Assembly (NCBI GenBank): GCA_963701665.1
Contig: OY969622.1
Coordinates: 800,001-864,000, forward strand
From: Candidatus Babeliales bacterium
GTDB taxonomy: Bacteria > Babelota > Babeliae > Babelales > JANWKD01
Length of the DNA stretch: 64,000 bases
Reading direction: 5' to 3'
The notes under the pieces were generated by a model that ran no database searches, was not told the DNA's origin, and was given only the letters and a program-made list of their open reading frames with translations. The translations under genes and the position numbers were made by a program. Of this stretch, positions 13,596 through 60,812 are shown in pieces. The stretch's first letter is position 1, and the number at the start of each line of letters is the position of its first letter.

Positions 13596-13868
13596 TTACT
13601 TTTTATTTGCAGCATTAATTTTTTTTGCAAGACGACTTACTTTTCGTGAAGCCGATTTAGGATGCAGCGTATTTTTACCTTTAGCGCGTGCCAACTTTGA
13701 TTCAGCATCTCTAAGAAGTGATTGCAAGGTAGTGCTATCTTCTTTGCTTTCGAGAGCCACTAACACTTTTTTAACTGCTGTTTTGAGAGATGTTTTGCGA
13801 ATGAGATTTTTCTGGCGACGAGTAATATTTTTTCGTGCCTGTTTTTTTGCTGATTTTGTATTTGCCAT
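13596..13868 (-). CDS. rpsT: 30S ribosomal protein S20
   Basis: MANTKSAKKQAR...LHPKSASRKVSRL. Confidence 0.96.
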   Translation of the reverse strand: MANTKSAKKQARKNITRRQKNLIRKTSLKTAVKKVLVALESKEDSTTLQSLLRDAESKLARAKGKNTLHPKSASRKVSRLAKKINAANKK

Positions 13869-13887: not shown

Positions 13888-14085
13888 CTAAATTACTTTT
13901 TCAACTTTGCCCGCTTTGACACATTTAGTACATACTGCGCCACGTTTAACATTTTTAGTACCAGTCATGGTGAATGAAATTTTATGAACGTTTGGGTAGG
14001 TCCAACGTTTAACTCTATTTCGAGCATGACTGACTAAGTTGCCAACATGAGGGCGTTTCGTACATACAACACAAATTCTTGACAT
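13888..14085 (-). CDS. rpmB: 50S ribosomal protein L28 (Zn-ribbon form)
   Basis: MSRICVVC...GNLVSHARNRVKRWTYPNV...VCTKCVK. Confidence 0.95.
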   Translation of the reverse strand: MSRICVVCTKRPHVGNLVSHARNRVKRWTYPNVHKISFTMTGTKNVKRGAVCTKCVKAGKVEKVI

Positions 14086-14177: not shown

Positions 14178-16820
14178 TTAAGACAACTTAAAATCCTGAC
14201 GAGGTTCAATCCCAAGAAGGGCGTAAATTTCACTGGCAAATAATGTTTCTTTTTCATATAAAACGTTAGCCAACTTCTCGAGCTTATCACGATTGTTTTT
14301 CAAGAGTTGAATAACCTTTTGGTAAGAGCTTTCAAGCAACTTTTGTACCTCAGCATCGATACGTTCAGCTGTTTTTTGGGAGTATTGGTATTCACCCTGG
14401 TTTTGGGTATATACCACTGGCCCCATTTCCTCTGACATACCATAATGGCATACCATTTTACGCGCTATTTCAGTAGCTTTTTCAAAATCATTAGAAGCCC
14501 CGGTAGCAAGCACATTAAAGACTAATTCTTCAGCCGCTCGCCCGCCTAAGCATACCATGATTACCGCAAGCATTTCCTCCCTCGTTTGAGTATATTTGTC
14601 TTTCTCCGGTAGCGAGTGCGTTACTCCTAACGCTCGACCACGCGGAATAATAGTAACTTTATGGAGTGGGTCACTATGTTCTGGCATCAGTAATCTAACG
14701 AGCGCATGTCCTGATTCATGAAATGCGGTAATTTTTCGTTCTTCTGGGGAAAGTATAATAGTCTTAAGTGCTTTACCCAGCATCATTTTATCACTCGCTT
14801 CTTCAAAATCATGAACGGTAACAAATTCTTGTTGCGGATCTTTTGAAGCATTTAAAGCAGCTTCATTGACTAAATTAGCTAGATCAGCGCCCGAAAATCC
14901 TGGTGTTCCGCGAGCAATTTTGCTCAAGTCAACGGCAACATCTAATTTTACATTTTTAGCATGGAGCTTTAATATTTTTTCTCGACAGGTAATATCGGGA
15001 TAAGGAACTTCTACACGTCTATCAAATCTGCCCGGTCGTAAAAGTGCTTTATCGAGTGTTTCTGGTCTGTTTGTTGCAGCCATAACAATCACCGATGTTC
15101 CTTCAGTATCAAAGCCATCCATTTCTGTTAATAACTGATTGAGGGTTTGGTTACGTTCTTCATGGCCACCAATACCAGTCACCCGTTTAGCACCAACTGC
15201 ATCAATTTCATCAATGAATATGATACTTGGATTGTGCTTGCGCGCCTGGTTAAATAAATCACGCACGCGTGAAGCGCCAACACCAACATACATTTCAACA
15301 AATTCCGAAGCACTCACCGAAAAGAAAGGGCAATTTGCTTCGCCAGCAACTGCCTTTGCGAGCAATGTTTTACCATTACCCGGCTCACCGACAAGCAAAA
15401 TACCACGGGTGATTTTAGCACCAAGGCGCTTATAGCGTTCGGGATTCTTCAAAAAGTCGACGACATCTTTTAATTCTTCTTTTGCTTCTTCAACACCAGC
15501 TACATCAGCAAAGGTACATTTGACTTGAGATGGCATAAATAATTTTGCTTTTGCATTGCCTTTTGCTGCAGTACTAAGATTTGATGATTGATTTCTTTGC
15601 GATTCAAGCATAACTTTATGCGCTTCTTCAAGATCCTGCTGATCAACACATTCTTTATTTTTTTTAGAAGCATTAATTGCTGCTTTATTCATAAGATTTG
15701 CAAGATCAGCACCGCTAAAGCCTGCAGTTTCTTCAGCAACTTTTTTTAAGTTAACATCCGCACTCATCTTCAATGCTTGAGCGTTTATTGCTAAAATTTG
15801 TTCTCGGCTTGGCGTATCAGGAAATGAAACTTCAACACGGCGATCAAATCTTCCTGGTCGTAAAAGCGCTTTATCTAAAACATCAGGCATATTTGTTGCG
15901 GCAATAACAATGACTGAAGATCCAGCCGTATCAAAACCATCCATTTCAGTAAGTAATTGGTTGAGCGTTTGCTCACGTTCATCGTGACCCCCGCCAAAAC
16001 CACTCCCTCGTTGACGACCAATAGCATCTATTTCATCAATGAAAACAATACTTGGCGCGTGTTTACGAGCTTGTGCAAAAAGATCACGCACGCGTGCAGC
16101 ACCAACGCCAACAAAAACCTCGATAAAATCTGAACCAGTAATACTGAAAAACGGGCAATTTGCTTCGCCAGCGACTGCTTTTGCAAGTAAGGTTTTACCA
16201 TTCCCTGGCTCACCTATCAATAAAACACCGCGGGTAACTTTAGCCCCTAATCGCTTGTATTTTTCGGGATTTTTCAAGAAATCTACAACATCTTTAAGCT
16301 CTTCTTTTGCGTCGTGGGCACCTGCCACCGATTTAAAGGTAACTTTTATCGTAGAAGGCATAAACATTTTTGCTTTACTTTTGCCCATACTAAAGATATT
16401 ACTGCCGCCGCCTGAACCACGACTTTGTTTGAAGAAATACCAAAAACCAAGTGGCATAAGAAGGAAAGAAGCAATCAACAGTAAATGCCAGAAACTAAAC
16501 TGTGATGATAACGGCGCGACTGAGAATTGAACATTATGGTCACGCAAGAGATCAAGATTCTTTGGATTATCAGCAACGACGGTTTCAAAATGGGTATCAT
16601 CTTTCATGATGCCATACACATCTTGACCATTGATATGTACTGATTTTACTTCATTATTTTCAATTGCATCCAAATACTTTGAATAAGAAATATTTTTTAC
16701 TTGTCGCGTGTAATCAGTTAATTTAGTGAGTAACGCGATAGATATTACAAAGAAAAGGACTACAAAGACTAAGTGTTTAGGCCCGCGTGCAAAAGGATTA
16801 TTTTTTAATTTGTGTCTCAT
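14178..16820 (-). CDS. ftsH: ATP-dependent zinc metalloprotease FtsH with two tandem AAA+ modules
   Basis: Two TM helices, two complete AAA modules ([22 protein letters not shown] each twice), M41 HESGH and GASND; start probably MRHK at 16820. Confidence 0.93.
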
Positions 16821-16997
16821 AATACACCCATTCTTACTTAAATTTTCACATAAAATTGGAGCATAAGCCATTTCGTGACAGAATCATGAAATGGATCTGA
16901 TAATATATTCTAATTGTACTATAAAATATAAAAAATTGAAAGTTCTGAGTAATTATATTATAAAAGATGCGTACTGTCGATCTTTTCTGAAGAAAAA

Positions 16998-18305
16998 TTA
17001 GGCGAAAATACCTATATCAGCATACTTGCCGGACCAGGCAGGGTAACTACATTCTTCGCCCTCTTTTGTTAAGAAAAACCGTTCTTGGGTAATCATATTT
17101 TGGACAGCGATTCTGCTTTTCTGCCCTTCTTTATAGACATACGCAAGATAATTCCCACAGGGTGACCAGGTACATTCATCCTTACTCCCTCGGTCAAAAG
17201 TAAGCTGATAATGTTCATTGGTAGTCCTATTATACACGAAAATTTGCATATCGTTACCAATTAACTTTGAATAGGCCACTCTGCCTGTTTTATCACATAC
17301 TTGGGGCGAAGCACAATACCCCCCCTGGGTTATCCGCCTTATAAGGCCAGTATCATGGCTTAGAAGGTAAATTTGTGGGCTTTTGGTTTCATAATCAGAG
17401 CAAAAAATAATGTCCCCATTGGCACAAATGTTGGGGGAAGTATTATTTCCTTGGTTAAACGTTATACGCCGATTAACGCCCTTTCTTGATGTGGCATCTA
17501 TATAATAAAGGTATATCTGGCAACTATTTTTGTGCGAGGCACAATAGGCCACTTTTTGACCGTCGGGAGAAAAGTTGGCTAGCATAGTCAATCCATCACC
17601 ATTCGATATGATTTTCCTCTTGCCATCCAACTGAGCAGCCATCAATCTAATATTGGCTGGTGTTACTTCAGAATATAATACCGAAGGATTGTTATTATCT
17701 TTATTCCAACGGGGTCCTAATAGTTTACCACCCTGCACCAAGGTAACTGGTACATCATGAGCGCATGGATCTTGAATGACAATGTTCTTTAAACATTTTT
17801 TACCTTTTTTGACGGTAGTGCAATACGCAATCTTCGTTAAAAAAACACTTTCTTGTCCCGTTAATACCTGCCAGATTTGATCTGCAACACTATGAGCAGT
17901 TGCTTTTGCTGATTTTTGTAAACGCACTTTTTTGCCATCAAGCATGGTACCATTCTGAGTATCGTATATACGCCATTCAACAGTATCGCCACTATACGAA
18001 AGAAAAATTACTACCGAAAAGCCTTGGTCAAAAAAAGTTCGTATTGTTTTTTTTGTTGGTATTTTGGCTAGTACATCCCAATGAACATTAAACCCACTCA
18101 GTTTTTGCTCGGAACATGTTAAATCTTGTGCAACTTTTTTTACAATTGCGCCTAACTCTTGGGAAGTATCCAATGCGATAAGCAGCAATTTCATTTTTTC
18201 TTGCTGTTGACGTGTTGCATCAACTTTTATCGTTTGCTTTGGCATTTGCATAGCATGCACACACCAAATGCTTCCCGCCAACCAAATTAAATGCATCAAT
18301 TTCAT
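16998..18305 (-). CDS. tolB: TolB-like beta-propeller protein
   Basis: Signal peptide, TolB N-domain (AHSVADQI), PD40-like repeats (FSPDGQKVAY, WSPCGNYLAY); tol cluster context. Confidence 0.85.
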   Translation of the reverse strand: MKLMHLIWLAGSIWCVHAMQMPKQTIKVDATRQQQEKMKLLLIALDTSQELGAIVKKVAQDLTCSEQKLSGFNVHWDVLAKIPTKKTIRTFFDQGFSVVIFLSYSGDTVEWRIYDTQNGTMLDGKKVRLQKSAKATAHSVADQIWQVLTGQESVFLTKIAYCTTVKKGKKCLKNIVIQDPCAHDVPVTLVQGGKLLGPRWNKDNNNPSVLYSEVTPANIRLMAAQLDGKRKIISNGDGLTMLANFSPDGQKVAYCASHKNSCQIYLYYIDATSRKGVNRRITFNQGNNTSPNICANGDIIFCSDYETKSPQIYLLSHDTGLIRRITQGGYCASPQVCDKTGRVAYSKLIGNDMQIFVYNRTTNEHYQLTFDRGSKDECTWSPCGNYLAYVYKEGQKSRIAVQNMITQERFFLTKEGEECSYPAWSGKYADIGIFA

Positions 18306-18324
18306 AACGTTGCCCCTCGGATGA

Positions 18325-19113
18325 TTAAAAAATTAATTCAATTTCGGTATGCCATAACGCGCGCGGGAAAGGATATTGAGCGACAAAATTCTTTACCATA
18401 ATATCAAGAGCGAGCGCGTGCGATGACTTCACAATGGTCACCGTACGCTCGGTTTCAGAACGTACGCATACTTTTACATGACATTGTTCAGTCGAGGGTA
18501 TATTCGTCGGACGTCGCCATGTTTTTGCGATGCCCGCTTTTATTTCGTTACACAAGGTAATTAATGCTAAATCATAATGACCAACTTGCTGTAGAGTTGT
18601 TGTCGTTGTAGCAGTATCGATCATCGCAGGCATTTTCTGCGAGGGTTGAGCTCGAACTACCGGTTCGATTTTTTTAGTTTTTTCTTTTTTAATGTCAGGT
18701 TTTTTTTCTACTTCTTTTTTTACCGATTTTTGTGGTTCGGGTATCGGTAATTTTTTGGCAGGTTCCTCTTTTTTCTTTTGAGGCTCTTGAATTTTCTTTG
18801 GCTGTAATTCTTTTGCTATCTGCGTCGTTGGCTGTGCACTCGGAACTTTTTTTTGTGCACGCGTTTCTTTTACTGCCTGCGCACGCGTTTGTGCGTTTGG
18901 CGTAATAGTTTTTATAAGCGGCACTAAGACAACCGTTGTACCATCAGAAATATCATGCAAGCGCACTATGTGGGCCAATCGCCACGATTGCACCATCATA
19001 AGTGCAAGAAAAAAAATCAGATGTAAGGTTGCTGAAAAAAATACGAGCTTTGTAAGAAAGATTGTTTTTCTAGGCAGCTTTGGTAGCAAGCTTTTCAGTT
19101 GCAATGGCAACAT
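18325..19113 (-). CDS. TolA/TonB-like energy transducer
   Basis: TM with S-x-x-x-H (SATLH), Lys/Pro/Glu-rich linker, C-terminal IAKTWRRP domain; lies between tolR and tolB. Confidence 0.7.
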   Translation of the reverse strand: MLPLQLKSLLPKLPRKTIFLTKLVFFSATLHLIFFLALMMVQSWRLAHIVRLHDISDGTTVVLVPLIKTITPNAQTRAQAVKETRAQKKVPSAQPTTQIAKELQPKKIQEPQKKKEEPAKKLPIPEPQKSVKKEVEKKPDIKKEKTKKIEPVVRAQPSQKMPAMIDTATTTTTLQQVGHYDLALITLCNEIKAGIAKTWRRPTNIPSTEQCHVKVCVRSETERTVTIVKSSHALALDIMVKNFVAQYPFPRALWHTEIELIF

Positions 19114-19516
19114 CTTTCACTCCTCCAACTACCTTGATTTGATCAATGACGCTTATTAAGATATTTGCTGAACAGGATTGTTGACGATCAACACGCACCC
19201 ATACACGTTTTGACTGTGCAGGATTGCCCACTGCTGAAAGACATTGTTTGATTTCTTGCCCAATAGTTTCAAGCGTTACCGGCTTATTATTGCAATAAAT
19301 TTTTTCTTCTTTATCAATAGAGATAACAATTTCTTGTTGTTCTTTACCAGCTTCTTGCGCAGCTCCTTTTGGCAAATCAATTTTGATAGAATTCTGAAGC
19401 ATGGGCGTTGTAACCATAAAAATTATAAGCAAGGTCAATGCCGTATCGATCAACGGCGTCAGCGTAATTTCCAGTGAAGGTGAAAGAGATTTTTTTCTTC
19501 GTCTCAATGATTGCAT
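19070..19516 (-). CDS. tolR: TolR/ExbD family protein
   Basis: ITLTPLIDTALTLLIIFMVTTPM, IDLP. Confidence 0.88.
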   Translation of the reverse strand: MQSLRRRKKSLSPSLEITLTPLIDTALTLLIIFMVTTPMLQNSIKIDLPKGAAQEAGKEQQEIVISIDKEEKIYCNNKPVTLETIGQEIKQCLSAVGNPAQSKRVWVRVDRQQSCSANILISVIDQIKVVGGVKDVAIATEKLATKAA

Positions 19517-19520
19517 GCAA

Positions 19521-20228
19521 TCAATCTCCTTTCAATAATTCCTTGCGAACAAAAATTTTTTGGATAATCCAATGAAATTTATCAGCTACTTTATAGAGCT
19601 CGTGTTCAACAATGCGAATTTGCGCAATCAAAAAATGGTACATAACGAGCGCAGGAACTGCAACAAGCAAACCAGCGAGGGTGGTAATCAACGCTTCTGC
19701 AATACCGGGTGCTACCGTGGCGATGTCGGCTGATTGTTTTTCACTTATGCGAATGAACGCGTGTACTAATCCCCACACAGTACCGAACAATCCTAATAAT
19801 GGTGAAACTGATGCACTCGTAAATAAAAATGGTAAGTATGATTCTTCCGTACGCATTAAATCTTCGAGCGTTTCTTCAAGTTGTTGTCGTAAATAAGAAC
19901 ATTCTTGCTGCGTAAGATGTGTTTTGCCAGCATCATGCTCAAGAAGTGATTTTAAAATGATGAGATTTCTTTTTAAAAAATAACCGGGCAACGTATCGAT
20001 CATGGCTGAAGCAACCATTCTCATTTCTTCAAACGTTTGCACTTCCCGTAACCGTTCCAGCATCATTGAAAGTTGTCTTTTTTTCAGGCGTAACAAGATG
20101 ACTTTATAAAGAAAAATTGTCCAACAGATAATCGACATACACAAAAGTGTTAGCAGAACAAGCTTTGTTACAAAATCTGATTGAATTACTAATAACCATA
20201 GTGCATTGCCATTCAAATTATACCACAT
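19521..20228 (-). CDS. tolQ: TolQ/ExbB (MotA family) proton channel
   Basis: SPLLGLFGTVWG, VAPGIAEALITTLAGLLVAVPA. Confidence 0.9.
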   Translation of the reverse strand: MWYNLNGNALWLLVIQSDFVTKLVLLTLLCMSIICWTIFLYKVILLRLKKRQLSMMLERLREVQTFEEMRMVASAMIDTLPGYFLKRNLIILKSLLEHDAGKTHLTQQECSYLRQQLEETLEDLMRTEESYLPFLFTSASVSPLLGLFGTVWGLVHAFIRISEKQSADIATVAPGIAEALITTLAGLLVAVPALVMYHFLIAQIRIVEHELYKVADKFHWIIQKIFVRKELLKGD

Positions 20229-22564: not shown

Positions 22565-23872
22565 TTATGATACTGCGCACCATGTTGATGATTTTTCAGG
22601 AACAAGATAAGGCTGCAAAATAGCTGCTAATATGGGCTTATTCTGCATAAGATTCTTAACAGCTTCTTTAACAAGCGAAGGTGCTTTATTGAGTTGAACT
22701 TTTTCATCAATAGTTATCATCTCGAGCAACCATCGCAAGGTTAACGCATCTTCGATTGATAATTTTTGTATATCTGGTTGTAAATCTGGATTTGTTATAT
22801 GCCATTTTTCAACGATTCTTTGATAGGCCATAGTCTTATCACAGATCAACTGATTTTGACTGTCGTACCCTACTGCCTTCTGGGTAGTATACTTTTTAAT
22901 ATTTTCAAGTGAAGCAGCATCCCATATTTGTATTAACCATTTTTTTGTATCTAGTAATGATGATGTTACTAAGTTTGCACCATTTGGTGAGAATGAAACA
23001 GAATGTGCTGGCCCTTGTGAAGTAGCCAGCAATTGACACTTTTGTGTCGCTAAATTCCAAAGGCGTACAATTTTGTCTTCCGTTGCGACTGCTAATATCT
23101 TGTTAGAAGGGGAAAAACGTAATGCAGTAACACATTTTCTGCTTGCGAATTCCGCAATCATACTATCTTCTTGTATACTCCATACAACCACTTTAGAACA
23201 ATTATTCATAGCAAGCGCTATAAGTGATTTATCATCTGAGAAAACGAAGTGTGATGGCGAATTATTTTTTATTTCATCAATAAGTAATTTAGGTAATGTA
23301 TGACTAGCATTAAAACCGTATTTTTTTGCCATTGTTGAAGCAACAAACAAAGACATTTCTGCTGGCATCGTGTCTGAGGGTGGCGCAGTAAATGTTTGCG
23401 TAATTTTAAGCATTTTTTCAAGATGCGTAGTATTAAATTCTTTTATGAGAACATTACTCAACAAATCTGAAGCTATGTTCATAAGAGTACAACAGTCTAA
23501 ATAGTTAGCTGTATTTAATAAAGGTATCAGTGCGTTTAACGATAGTTTTTTTGCTGCGAGGAAAGCTTTGCATTTTTTAAGTATTTCTTCTTTAGATAAA
23601 GTTTTTGATTGTTGAACTAAAAAGTCACTTAATTCTTTAATAATAGACATCTCGCGTGAAGTAACAACATCTGATACTACCAAAGGATTTTGAGTTGTGT
23701 CATCACAGTCTGCGATCATATGAGTAAGTAGTTTTGATTCTTGTATGGTTTCATCGGTAAAGGTAAATTTTCCACCGTCTCGCGTTTCCACCACTATTTC
23801 CATAGCAGAAAGTGAGAATGCGGTATTTATGAGAAACAACATTAAATTTTTTATTACTTTTTTACTAAGCAT
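22565..23872 (-). CDS. Secreted Skp1/BTB-like + WD40 protein with C-terminal CaaX
   Basis: Signal peptide; Skp1-like IVVETRDGGKF...ESKLLTHMIAD...LLNTANYLD; WD40 repeats (VTALRFSP..LAVATEDKIVRLWN, SVSFSPNG..IQIWD); ends CAVS. Confidence 0.8.
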   Translation of the reverse strand: MLSKKVIKNLMLFLINTAFSLSAMEIVVETRDGGKFTFTDETIQESKLLTHMIADCDDTTQNPLVVSDVVTSREMSIIKELSDFLVQQSKTLSKEEILKKCKAFLAAKKLSLNALIPLLNTANYLDCCTLMNIASDLLSNVLIKEFNTTHLEKMLKITQTFTAPPSDTMPAEMSLFVASTMAKKYGFNASHTLPKLLIDEIKNNSPSHFVFSDDKSLIALAMNNCSKVVVWSIQEDSMIAEFASRKCVTALRFSPSNKILAVATEDKIVRLWNLATQKCQLLATSQGPAHSVSFSPNGANLVTSSLLDTKKWLIQIWDAASLENIKKYTTQKAVGYDSQNQLICDKTMAYQRIVEKWHITNPDLQPDIQKLSIEDALTLRWLLEMITIDEKVQLNKAPSLVKEAVKNLMQNKPILAAILQPYLVPEKSSTWCAVS

Positions 23873-58382: not shown

Positions 58383-60812
58383 ATGAACTATGATGAAACA
58401 AAACACATAACCGATGGGCCTATGGAAAATAGCACTCATTTAGCATTATTACCCTTAAAAAATGTCATTATTTTACCTAAAAGCATCCTTCCTATTATTG
58501 TAGGCAGACCGATCTCAATTCAGGCGGTTGAATATGCTTTAAAACATGATAAGTCTATTTTTATATCAACGCAAAGAGATTCAACGGTAGAGAATCCTAC
58601 TGATCGGGATGTTTATCAAGTAGGTATTCGAGCAACTATTTTGCAAGTTATGCGCATGCCAAATGGCGCATTAAAAATTTTAGTTGAGGGCATCTGCCGC
58701 GCACAAATCAAAATTGTAGACCAATCTCATTCCTTTATATGTGTCTACGCGCAAGATCTAACATCACAATATTCGGAAAAGACCGTTGAAATTGAAGCAT
58801 TATGGCGTGCGTTAAAAGAGCATTATGAAGATTATGCTAAAATTAATGAAAAAATTCCTCACGATTTGATGTCATTGGCAAAAACAATCGAAGATATGGA
58901 TGCCATTGCTGATACGATCGCCGTCCATATAAATCTTTCTTTTGACGAGCGCCAAGCGATGCTTGAGACGCCCGATTTAAAAGAACGGCTCATCAAATTG
59001 AATGCCCTCCTTCAAAAAGAAATTCAAATTGCGCAAACTGAACAACGCATAAAAGGTCGCATCAAAAGTCAGTTTGAAAAAAGTCAGCGCGAATATTATT
59101 TACATGAACAAATTAAGGCTATTAATAAAGAACTAGGCCGCGAAGATCAAACAGCAGAAATTGCACAGATTAAAGCTAAAATAAAAACATTAGGATTATC
59201 AGATGAAGCGAGTGAAAAAGTTGATAAAGAATTAAAACGCCTTGAACAAATGCCACCATTTTCTTCTGAAGCTGTTGTATCACGTAATTACATTGATTGG
59301 ATCATTTCCATTCCGTGGAAAAAACAAAGCAAAGATACTATAAGTTTAGAACAAGCAGAAAAAATTCTTAATAAACAACATGCAGGATTGCATAAACCAA
59401 AAGAGCGTATCATTGAGTTCATTGCTGCAAAGAAATTTGCCAAAACGATGGAACGATCACCTATTATTTGTTTAGTAGGGCCTCCGGGCGTTGGTAAAAC
59501 ATCATTAGGTCAATCAATTGCAAAAAGTTTAGGCCGTGAATTTGTACGTATTTCACTAGGCGGTATTAAAGATGAGGCTGAAATTCGCGGGCATCGCCGT
59601 ACCTACATCGGTGCATTACCCGGAAAAATTATTCATGCTATGAAAAAAGCAAAAACGGTTAATCCACTTATTTTGCTTGATGAAATTGATAAAATTTCTC
59701 GCGATGTTCATGGGGATCCTTCTTCTGCCCTTTTAGAAGTATTGGATCCTGAACAAAACTAAACCTTTGTCGATCATTTCCTTGATGTTGAATATGATTT
59801 ATCAAAAGTCATGTTTATCGCAACAGCAAATATGATTGAAGGTATTCCTTATCCATTGTTCGACCGTATGGAAATTATTACGCTCTCGGGATACACAGAA
59901 GCTGAAAAACTTGCTATTGCTCGACATTTCTTACTACCAAAAGGATTAAAAGAATATCATTTATCAAAAACACAATTTCGCATTCCCGACGATATGTTGG
60001 AAAAAATTATCAGCGAATATACAAAAGAAGCGGGTGTTCGACAACTTGAACGCGTGCTTACTAAATTAATGCGCAAAGCAATTCAAAGTCTTTTAAAAGA
60101 GCCAAAACAAGCAACTATTGTCGTCACTCCTGATCGCATACAAGAATGGCTTGGCTATCCTAAATTCAAAAAGACGCCACTCGATTTACACAAAAAACGT
60201 ATTGGTATTGCAACAGGACTTGCGTGGACAGAAGTTGGCGGTGATATGCTTGAGATTGAAGCAACGGTACTTTCAGGAAAAGGTGGACTCACGCTCACTG
60301 GCCAACTTGGCGAAGTGATGCAAGAATCAGCCTATGCAGCATTAAGTTATATTCGCTCACGCGCAAAAGAACTAGGATTAAAGGAATCATTTTATTCTTC
60401 AAAAGATCTTCATATTCATATTCCCGAGGGTGCAACACCAAAAGATGGTCCATCAGCGGGTATTACGATTTGCACTGCACTCGTTTCAGCATTAACAAAA
60501 AATCCAACGCGCGCAGATATTGCTATGACGGGTGAAATTACGTTACGTGGACGCGTGTTCTCAATAGGTGGTCTCAAAGAAAAATTATTGGCAGCAAAAC
60601 AACACTCTATTAAGACCGTGTTAGTACCTAAAGAAAACAGCGACGATCTTGCTGAAATATTAAAAGAAGCACCTGATCTTGGGCTCAACATCATTTTTGT
60701 TGAATCAATGGACGAAGTACTGACATATGCCCTTGAAAAAGATCCATTTGCCCATAAAAATACCCACAACGGCAAAAAAACGAAATCTAAATCTGCTAAA
60801 AAGAAAAAATAA
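58383..60812 (+). pseudogene. lon: Lon protease (endopeptidase La) interrupted by an in-frame TAA at 59760-59762
   Basis: LON N-domain, [47 protein letters not shown] continuing in the same frame, KDGPSAG catalytic Ser, IGGLKEK. Confidence 0.9.

Follow-up and report, generated by a model that had tools for sequence, protein, structure and literature searches.

The ftsH locus and its neighbours

The window analysed, a stretch of 64,000 nucleotides (positions 800,001 to 864,000 of contig OY969622.1) from a Candidatus Babeliales bacterium, contains on its minus strand (16820-14178) a single frame free of stop codons, read from the second ATG as an FtsH of 880 residues (P0001) on the basis of the open reading frame and of Pfam and TIGR01241 matches; translation from another in-frame ATG, at 16871, would yield 897 residues. 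Upstream of ftsH lies a tolB-like β-propeller gene (16998-18305, minus strand), recognized by its PD40 repeats in Pfam and by synteny, and downstream, on the same strand, follow an L28-like (13888-14085) and an S20-like (13596-13868) open reading frame, assigned to ribosomal proteins from sequence features and synteny and not from a family scan. The four genes upstream of ftsH (16998-20228, minus strand) look like a tolQ-tolR-tolA-tolB cluster, with a Pfam match in the tolB-like gene only; the names tolQ, tolR and tolA are tentative.

The tolB-like and ribosomal protein genes are conserved neighbours of ftsH in related genomes, and the tolB-like gene adjoins both single-module and double-module forms of the protease. 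Examined over short flanks, rpsT was found next to ftsH in 40 of 50 double-module loci and in 47 of 55 and 27 of 30 single-module loci, and tolB in 31 of 50 double-module loci and in 39 of 55 and 24 of 30 single-module loci. Since the two forms share a tolB-ftsH-rpsT locus, the double form is to be regarded as the housekeeping ortholog.

A tblastn search of the 1.34 Mb single-contig genome (G000) revealed no second FtsH, the next match being 28% identical and devoid of an HExxH motif. A 912-residue open frame at about 680800-683500 of the contig (G000:C1, minus strand) combines a degenerate Walker A and an FtsH-like C-terminal half with HQSGH in place of HExxH, and likely encodes an inactive FtsH-like protein, to judge by these motifs. 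Elsewhere in this single-contig assembly rpoB is split by a frameshift (G000:C1:398417-401693), probably a sequencing error, and within the window a 435-residue protein (22565-23872, minus strand) associates a weak Skp1/POZ-like N-terminus with WD40 repeats, an architecture of eukaryotic type in a bacterium that lives inside cells.

Domain organization of the protein

The N-terminal anchor consists of a first predicted transmembrane helix (residues 17-35; 16716-16772, on the minus strand like all features of the gene), detected in a hydropathy scan and modelled as a helix at 14-39, an extracellular or periplasmic FtsH domain (residues ~41-102; 16515-16700; PF06480 match at 19-102, E 2.6e-10), and a second predicted helix from the same scan (residues ~108-130; 16431-16499; model helix 110-133). 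The anchor is followed by a first AAA+ module, D1 (residues 149-408; 15597-16376), by a linker (residues ~409-423; 15552-15596) with pLDDT below 50 at 411-423 and a near-constant length among homologs, and by a second AAA+ module, D2 (residues 424-682; 14775-15551). Both modules were delimited from motif positions and alignment, and lie close to the segments of about 16390-15620 and 15560-14800 which an earlier note on this DNA had assigned to them. The M41 zinc protease domain (residues 689-867; 14220-14756; PF01434, E 3e-66) contains HESGH at 701-705 and D778 of a GASND motif, which is presumably the third zinc ligand of the FtsH protease.

That note had proposed a tandem duplication of the full AAA+ module in front of a single protease, and the Pfam annotation, in which AAA and AAA_lid_3 each match two stretches and FtsH_ext (19-102) and Peptidase_M41 (689-867) one each, bears this out. 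Residue by residue, each of the motifs listed is doubled, in D1 and D2 respectively: KAK.FMPS at 149 and 424, GEPGNGKT at 203 and 478, the pore loops FIEVFVGVG at 232 and FVEMYVGVG at 507, [VI]FIDE at 259 and 534, a 12-residue motif at 285 and 559, and LLRPGRFDR at 319 and 593, whereas HESGH occurs once, at 701. The Walker B motif does occur in both modules, but the D1 copy reads VFIDE and not IFIDE. In D1, the functional sites comprise Walker A (203-210), the FVG of pore loop 1 (F236), Walker B (D262/E263), sensor 1 (N310) and the arginine fingers (321/324); the corresponding sites of D2 are Walker A (478-485), YVG (Y511), D537/E538, N584 and 595/598. Pore loop 2 is canonical in D1, where it comprises a 16-residue motif, and diverged in D2; conversely, the lid end of D1 has diverged from the protease-joining motif and that of D2 is canonical (D677, G682) and runs into the protease.

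The protein displays the attributes of an FtsH, namely an anchor made of two transmembrane segments flanking an extracellular domain, a classic AAA+ module, here present twice, and a C-terminal M41 domain with HExxH and the conserved Asp. It departs from canonical FtsH, with exactly one AAA+ module per chain, in possessing two. Its score against the FtsH family model TIGR01241, summed over two stretches, is 1193 bits, above the cut-off of 600, and its score against NF008004, 943 bits, falls below the cut-off of 1008.

Conservation and specialization of the two modules

The copies share 181 of 259 aligned residues (70%), their DNA is 75, 86 and 51% identical at the first, second and third codon positions, and the longest exact DNA match between them measures 20 nt. 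The duplication is old and diverged, and a collapsed repeat is excluded. No sequencing run contained half of the sequence words sampled; the contigs of four runs yielded short pieces only, none of them across the whole junction, and were counted neither for nor against the architecture.

Conservation was assessed in an alignment of 111 sequences, biased towards close matches, made of the query and 110 of the 113 two-module proteins found in the homolog search (P0027, P0077 and P0119 were excluded). None of the 111 sequences varies, in either module, at the Walker A K/T, the Walker B D/E, the sensor-1 N, the DGF motif or the two arginine fingers, or at H701, E702, H705 and D778 of the protease, and an aromatic residue (F/Y) occupies pore loop 1 in 111/111 D1 and 111/111 D2 modules. 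The span from G367 to G478 varies between 106 and 115 residues overall and measures 110-113 residues in 102 of the 111. Estimates of dN/dS from 11 close pairs, rough because synonymous sites are close to saturation, amount to 0.027 for the large domain of D1, 0.033 for that of D2, 0.06 for M41, ~0.075 for each of the lids and 0.087 for the linker. As judged from sequence, both modules are intact and kept by purifying selection.

The consensus sequences of 45 D1, 45 D2 and 83 single-module FtsH reveal a division of ancestral features between the copies. D1 keeps the canonical FVG pore loop, with the same F as the single-module proteins (82 of 83), together with the 16-residue pore loop 2 motif; however, DFEEARDKxxLG, the motif by which the lid end passes into the protease, has been lost from D1, although its D and G occur in 83/83 single-module proteins and persist in D2 (D677 and G682, 111/111). 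In D1, TPG has in addition become TAG and the R after sensor 1 is replaced by M/I or a similar residue (111/111). D2 retains the lid end and TPG, carries YVG in 96/111 sequences and has a variable pore loop 2, in which the R equivalent to R269 subsists in 19/111 and the E equivalent to E283 in 9/111. With substrate-entry loops retained in D1 and the protease-joining lid end in D2, the copies have specialized, a pattern that would be expected if D1 faced the membrane and the substrate and D2 sat on the protease. The missing R after sensor 1 of D1 and the relaxed pore loop 2 of D2 suggest that the rings may differ in activity.

Distribution in Babelota (Dependentiae)

A homolog search with the junction region as the query gave, among the best 120 proteins listed, 113 two-module and 7 four-module proteins, the named homologs belonging to Candidatus Babeliales/Dependentiae. 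A junction profile covering the end of the D1 lid, the linker and the start of D2 (115 positions, 30 rows) was then searched in 261 genomes of the phylum and matched (nearly) full length, with E <= 1e-37, in 51 of them, about a fifth, distributed over 8 of 21 families (5 carriers in f1, 21 in f2, 2 in f8, 1 in f9, 9 in f12, 2 in f16, 6 in f19 and 5 in f21). Two further genomes, G061 and G079, contain divergent two-module paralogs and a third, G097, an apparent frameshifted carrier, bringing the range to 51-54 of 261. The search of related genomes that the earlier note had called for thus recovers the junction in 51 separate assemblies. Other profile matches span half of the profile, as ordinary FtsH should, and all 85 non-carrier loci inspected (55 + 30) are single-module genes; most genomes of the phylum carry an ordinary single-module FtsH.

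Various paralogs accompany these genes. Second two-module FtsH paralogs were encountered at L043 (G109:C1:208978-211146), L051 (G079) and L052 (G061); that of G109 has a short N-terminus, and that of G061, in which HExxH is no longer present, resembles a pseudoprotease derived from an independent duplication. Paralogs with a single AAA module, an M41 domain and unrelated N-termini comprise L055 (G042), L078 (G043), L104 (G094), L105 (G121), L106 (G120), P0158 and P0159. Several of them adjoin ftsH, and the origin of P0158 and of the G120 and G121 copies lies in the D2-M41 region of the double-module gene.

Evolutionary history within the phylum

On an RpoB tree of 85 genomes, carriers of the double form occur at about nine places among single-module relatives. 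A tree of the N-terminus plus M41, weak at its deep nodes, recovers several of the sister pairs seen with RpoB in which one member has the single form and the other the double form; this points to vertical inheritance and disfavours a horizontal spread of the whole gene. In the tree of modules, the D1s cluster (support 0.91, n=48) away from the D2s, with the single modules between them, and D1 is nearer to the D1 of other lineages than to its own D2 in all 13 lineages compared; on these grounds we reject concerted evolution between D1 and D2.

Thirteen independent duplications were rejected by an AU test on all 265 columns (p 3e-84) and were not rejected once position-specific columns had been removed (179 columns, p 0.054), both with fast searches. 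In the two best sister pairs of the reversion test, the single modules lean to D1 in their N-terminal part (z 1.2-1.3) and to D2 in the lid (z 1.6-2.0), with little lean overall, which weakly suggests that reversion has occurred by recombination. P0158, considered as a candidate revertant, was rejected as such, being a D2-M41 paralog with an unrelated N-terminus. The TPG to TAG change in the lid arose independently in non-final modules of Muribaculaceae FtsH, so that convergence is real. A single origin followed by repeated reversions has, in our estimation, somewhat better than an even chance of being correct, and repeated convergent duplication a substantial one, though less than even.

Multi-module FtsH outside Babelota

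FtsH with additional modules also occurs beyond Babelota. In a collection of species genomes, the best 10 of 75 loci contain a full-length four-module FtsH from Bacteroidales (Muribaculaceae, Sodaliphilus and similar), one of the ten with an internal stop; in this form, the first module has canonical loops and the middle modules are degenerate. Among the best 150 matches within 1.84 billion cluster representatives, 40 associate 2-4 AAA modules with one M41 domain (30, 9 and 1 proteins with two, three and four modules, respectively); at least one of these 40, P0162, seems to be a fragment, and in several the first module is dead. One three-module cluster belongs to Thermoleophilaceae, and proteins with 2-4 modules are also found in unnamed lineages. 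The four-module loci of Muribaculaceae/Bacteroidales are L259-L268, with a three-module relative, and other multi-module examples are P0123, P0124, P0130 and P0128.

On a tree of the last module plus M41, multi-module FtsH are dispersed over the FtsH family. They resemble the Babelota protein by their membrane anchor, tandem AAA modules and one M41 domain, by non-final lids that lose the proline of TPG and by canonical pore loops in the first module, but they differ in their separate origins on the tree and in middle modules which are often degenerate, as against two intact modules here.

Structural comparison with known AAA+ systems

Canonical bacterial FtsH (MEROPS M41; TIGR01241; PDB codes 7vhp, 7wi4, 7tdo, 2ce7, 3kds, 2dhr and 4ww0) and mitochondrial AFG3L2/YME1 (6nyy, 6az0) served as the comparison set. 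The Babelota protein shares with them two membrane helices and an extracellular domain, a classic AAA+ module with an SRH and an HExxH M41 domain, and with the single-module ftsH of the phylum the same locus; unlike canonical FtsH, it has a second complete AAA+ module between the membrane anchor and the protease. With the type II AAA+ proteins p97/VCP, Cdc48, VAT and NVL, it shares tandem classic-clade modules and a near-equal spacing from lid to next module. In contrast to p97/Cdc48/VAT, it lacks a p97-type N domain, its N-terminus being FtsH_ext, and carries a membrane anchor and a protease in the same chain; it scores 451 bits against the Cdc48 family model TIGR01243, below the cut-off of 803. 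Unlike the modules of p97, D1 and D2 both descend from the FtsH of their own lineage, with which they share G[ED]PGNGKT. The predicted organization, two ATPase tiers feeding a protease, is that of ClpAP/ClpCP. However, D1 and D2 are FtsH-type modules 70% identical to each other, whereas those of ClpA come from different AAA clades, as stated in the relevant passage of PMC7226402, and the protease is fused and membrane-bound, in contrast to the separate serine peptidase of the soluble ClpAP/ClpCP.

Against p97 (393-508), VAT (387-499) and plant CDC48A, the junction profile gives one continuous alignment, with lengths within 1-2 residues; every solved FtsH chain that it matched aligns in two pieces only. 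The p97 linker measures 22 residues (460-481) according to a passage of PMC4730245. AlphaFold models of single chains gave a pLDDT of 80 and a pTM of 0.51 for the full chain, and 81.5 and 0.54 for D1-D2 alone, with high confidence inside the domains and low confidence between them. The D1-D2 model superimposes on substrate-engaged p97/Cdc48 chains with a TM score of 0.64-0.69 over both modules (RMSD 6-9 Å), the ceiling from one module alone being ~0.5, and on NVL with 5.7 Å over 498 residues; the D2-M41 model fits substrate-bound AFG3L2 (6nyy) at 2.9-3.4 Å. The p97 likeness of the D1-D2 model may partly echo the training of the predictor on p97.

Proposed mode of action and alternative explanations

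The p97-like spacing of the junction and the single-chain model make a two-tier hexamer the likely form of the protein. We consider it probable that the chain assembles, as motifs and model suggest, into a hexamer in which a membrane anchor, the D1 ring, the D2 ring and the protease ring succeed each other, and that substrates pass through two motors in series. A double-ring membrane protease similar to p97 or ClpA, with two potentially active motors, is our best reading of these data, one we hold with good though by no means full confidence. The D1 ring would lie on the membrane side, stacked on the D2 ring, and recognize and engage the substrate by its FVG and GGGHDERE pore loops in the manner of a normal FtsH ring; D2, with its YVG, relaxed pore loop 2 and protease-joining lid, would pass the chain into the proteolytic chamber, both motors pulling at the expense of ATP. 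If the likeness to ClpA holds, the additional ring would improve grip and processivity, and would make stalling less frequent on substrates that are stable or embedded in the membrane. In ClpA, the pore loops of D1 engage the substrate and D2 drives unfolding (PMC8666677), and when D1 is inactive the enzyme stalls and slips back (10.1101/585554); a comparable gain for FtsH would follow from this likeness. Any such gain is non-essential, since most genomes of the phylum, including close sisters of the carriers, manage with one module; moreover, PMC9601784 disputes the view of ordinary FtsH as a weak unfoldase.

The second module could also bring no functional gain, having been fixed by drift in small populations of intracellular bacteria and kept as the copies split the ancestral roles. 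The complementary loss of ancestral features from D1 and D2, the patchy occurrence among single-module sisters and the description of Babelota as strictly intracellular (PMC12172432) agree with such a history. Against it, multi-module FtsH recurs in many separate parts of the FtsH tree, gut Muribaculaceae and Thermoleophilaceae included. Moreover, although a normal FtsH could be regained by deleting one module in frame, strong selection keeps the two of them. We regard drift as a rather unlikely explanation; it concerns why the double form exists and is compatible with the stacking of the rings.

It is less probable still that the rings are stacked with a single working motor, the other serving assembly or regulation through the binding or hydrolysis of ATP, or acting as a spacer. 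NSF-type and Pex1/6-type proteins provide a precedent for one working ring, and the variable pore loop 2 of D2, the lack of R after sensor 1 in D1 and the degenerate middle pore loops of the four-module Muribaculaceae form, by which passive modules are seen to arise, all point in that direction, but an aromatic pore loop 1 and all hydrolysis residues are present in both modules, the dN/dS values of which are near-equal.

An in-plane pseudo-hexamer, in which three chains would build one ring of alternating D1 and D2 with three proteases, like a fused hetero-hexamer, seems quite improbable. Trans-acting arginine fingers are kept in both modules, a flexible linker of ~15 residues could reach a neighbour, a protein with two whole AAA-M41 units does exist (P0128), and six is divisible by two or three modules per chain. 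Nevertheless, such an arrangement would leave three proteases and three anchors, although members of the family function as hexamers (PMC9601784, PMC7226402), the junction spacing matches that of the stacked p97/VAT, and the single-chain model is p97-like. Six is not divisible by four, so that the orthologous four-module forms of Muribaculaceae could not fill a hexameric ring in its plane but can be stacked, which again favours stacking. Finally, the double module might be an artefact of assembly, or a tandem duplication that is both recent and unstable, and the frameshifted rpoB could speak for this as a sign of some sequence errors in the genome. Such an origin has a vanishingly small probability and is refuted, as the earlier note had expected from the divergence of the copies, by third codon positions just 51% identical and by the recurrence of the same junction in 51 separately assembled genomes from 8 families and in 113 of the 120 best protein matches, from several sources.

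Proteolytic context and significance

Of the 261 Babelota genomes, 3 match ClpP strongly and 48 more do so weakly and in part, and neither ClpP nor ClpX was matched in the source genome, which is 93.6% complete; judging from these searches, ClpXP appears to have been lost from the phylum. Compensation for the loss of ClpP does not account for the patchy occurrence of the double form, since nearly the whole phylum, single-module genomes included, is devoid of ClpP. The source genome possesses two Lon genes, located at 58446-60731 (plus strand) of the window, where a TAA lies within the family match, and at G000:C1:1216126-1218405, together with a ClpB-like gene. With ClpP nearly absent from Babelota, ATP-dependent proteolysis would rest mainly on Lon and FtsH.

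Searches of the open full-text literature found no description of an FtsH with two AAA modules, so that prior documentation, which the earlier note had named as a ground for refutation, was not encountered there. In the same open texts, no paper pairing FtsH with Dependentiae and no mention of FtsH in the Babelota papers retrieved was found, and the terms for the architecture led to p97, Clp and general AAA papers only. FtsH is absent from the two-module AAA proteins surveyed in the relevant passages of PMC7226402 and PMC6176779. PMC7226402 and PMC9601784 present FtsH as a single AAA module joined to a single protease; double-ring motors are described as soluble unfoldases whose peptidase is separate or lacking.

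A housekeeping FtsH with two selected motors bridges this divide between single-ring membrane proteases and double-ring soluble unfoldases. The need for two rings in some AAA+ machines has so far been probed with ClpA or p97 in which one of the rings was disabled. One-ring and two-ring orthologs located at the same locus in sister species, with three or four modules elsewhere, make the gain per ring testable on natural proteins. In a wider sense, the motor of FtsH may be modular and stackable, AAA+ tiers having been repeatedly added and apparently removed by recombination between repeats to give from one to four rings; in Babelota both rings would be active, D1 engaging and D2 feeding, and the nested single-module forms would be D1/D2 chimeric revertants. 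We advance this broader scheme tentatively, its chances lying slightly below even. If true, the Babelota protein would be the first AAA protease of the membrane to have a double ring integrated covalently, and would offer a ready system to measure what each extra ring contributes to force, grip and the extraction of membrane proteins.
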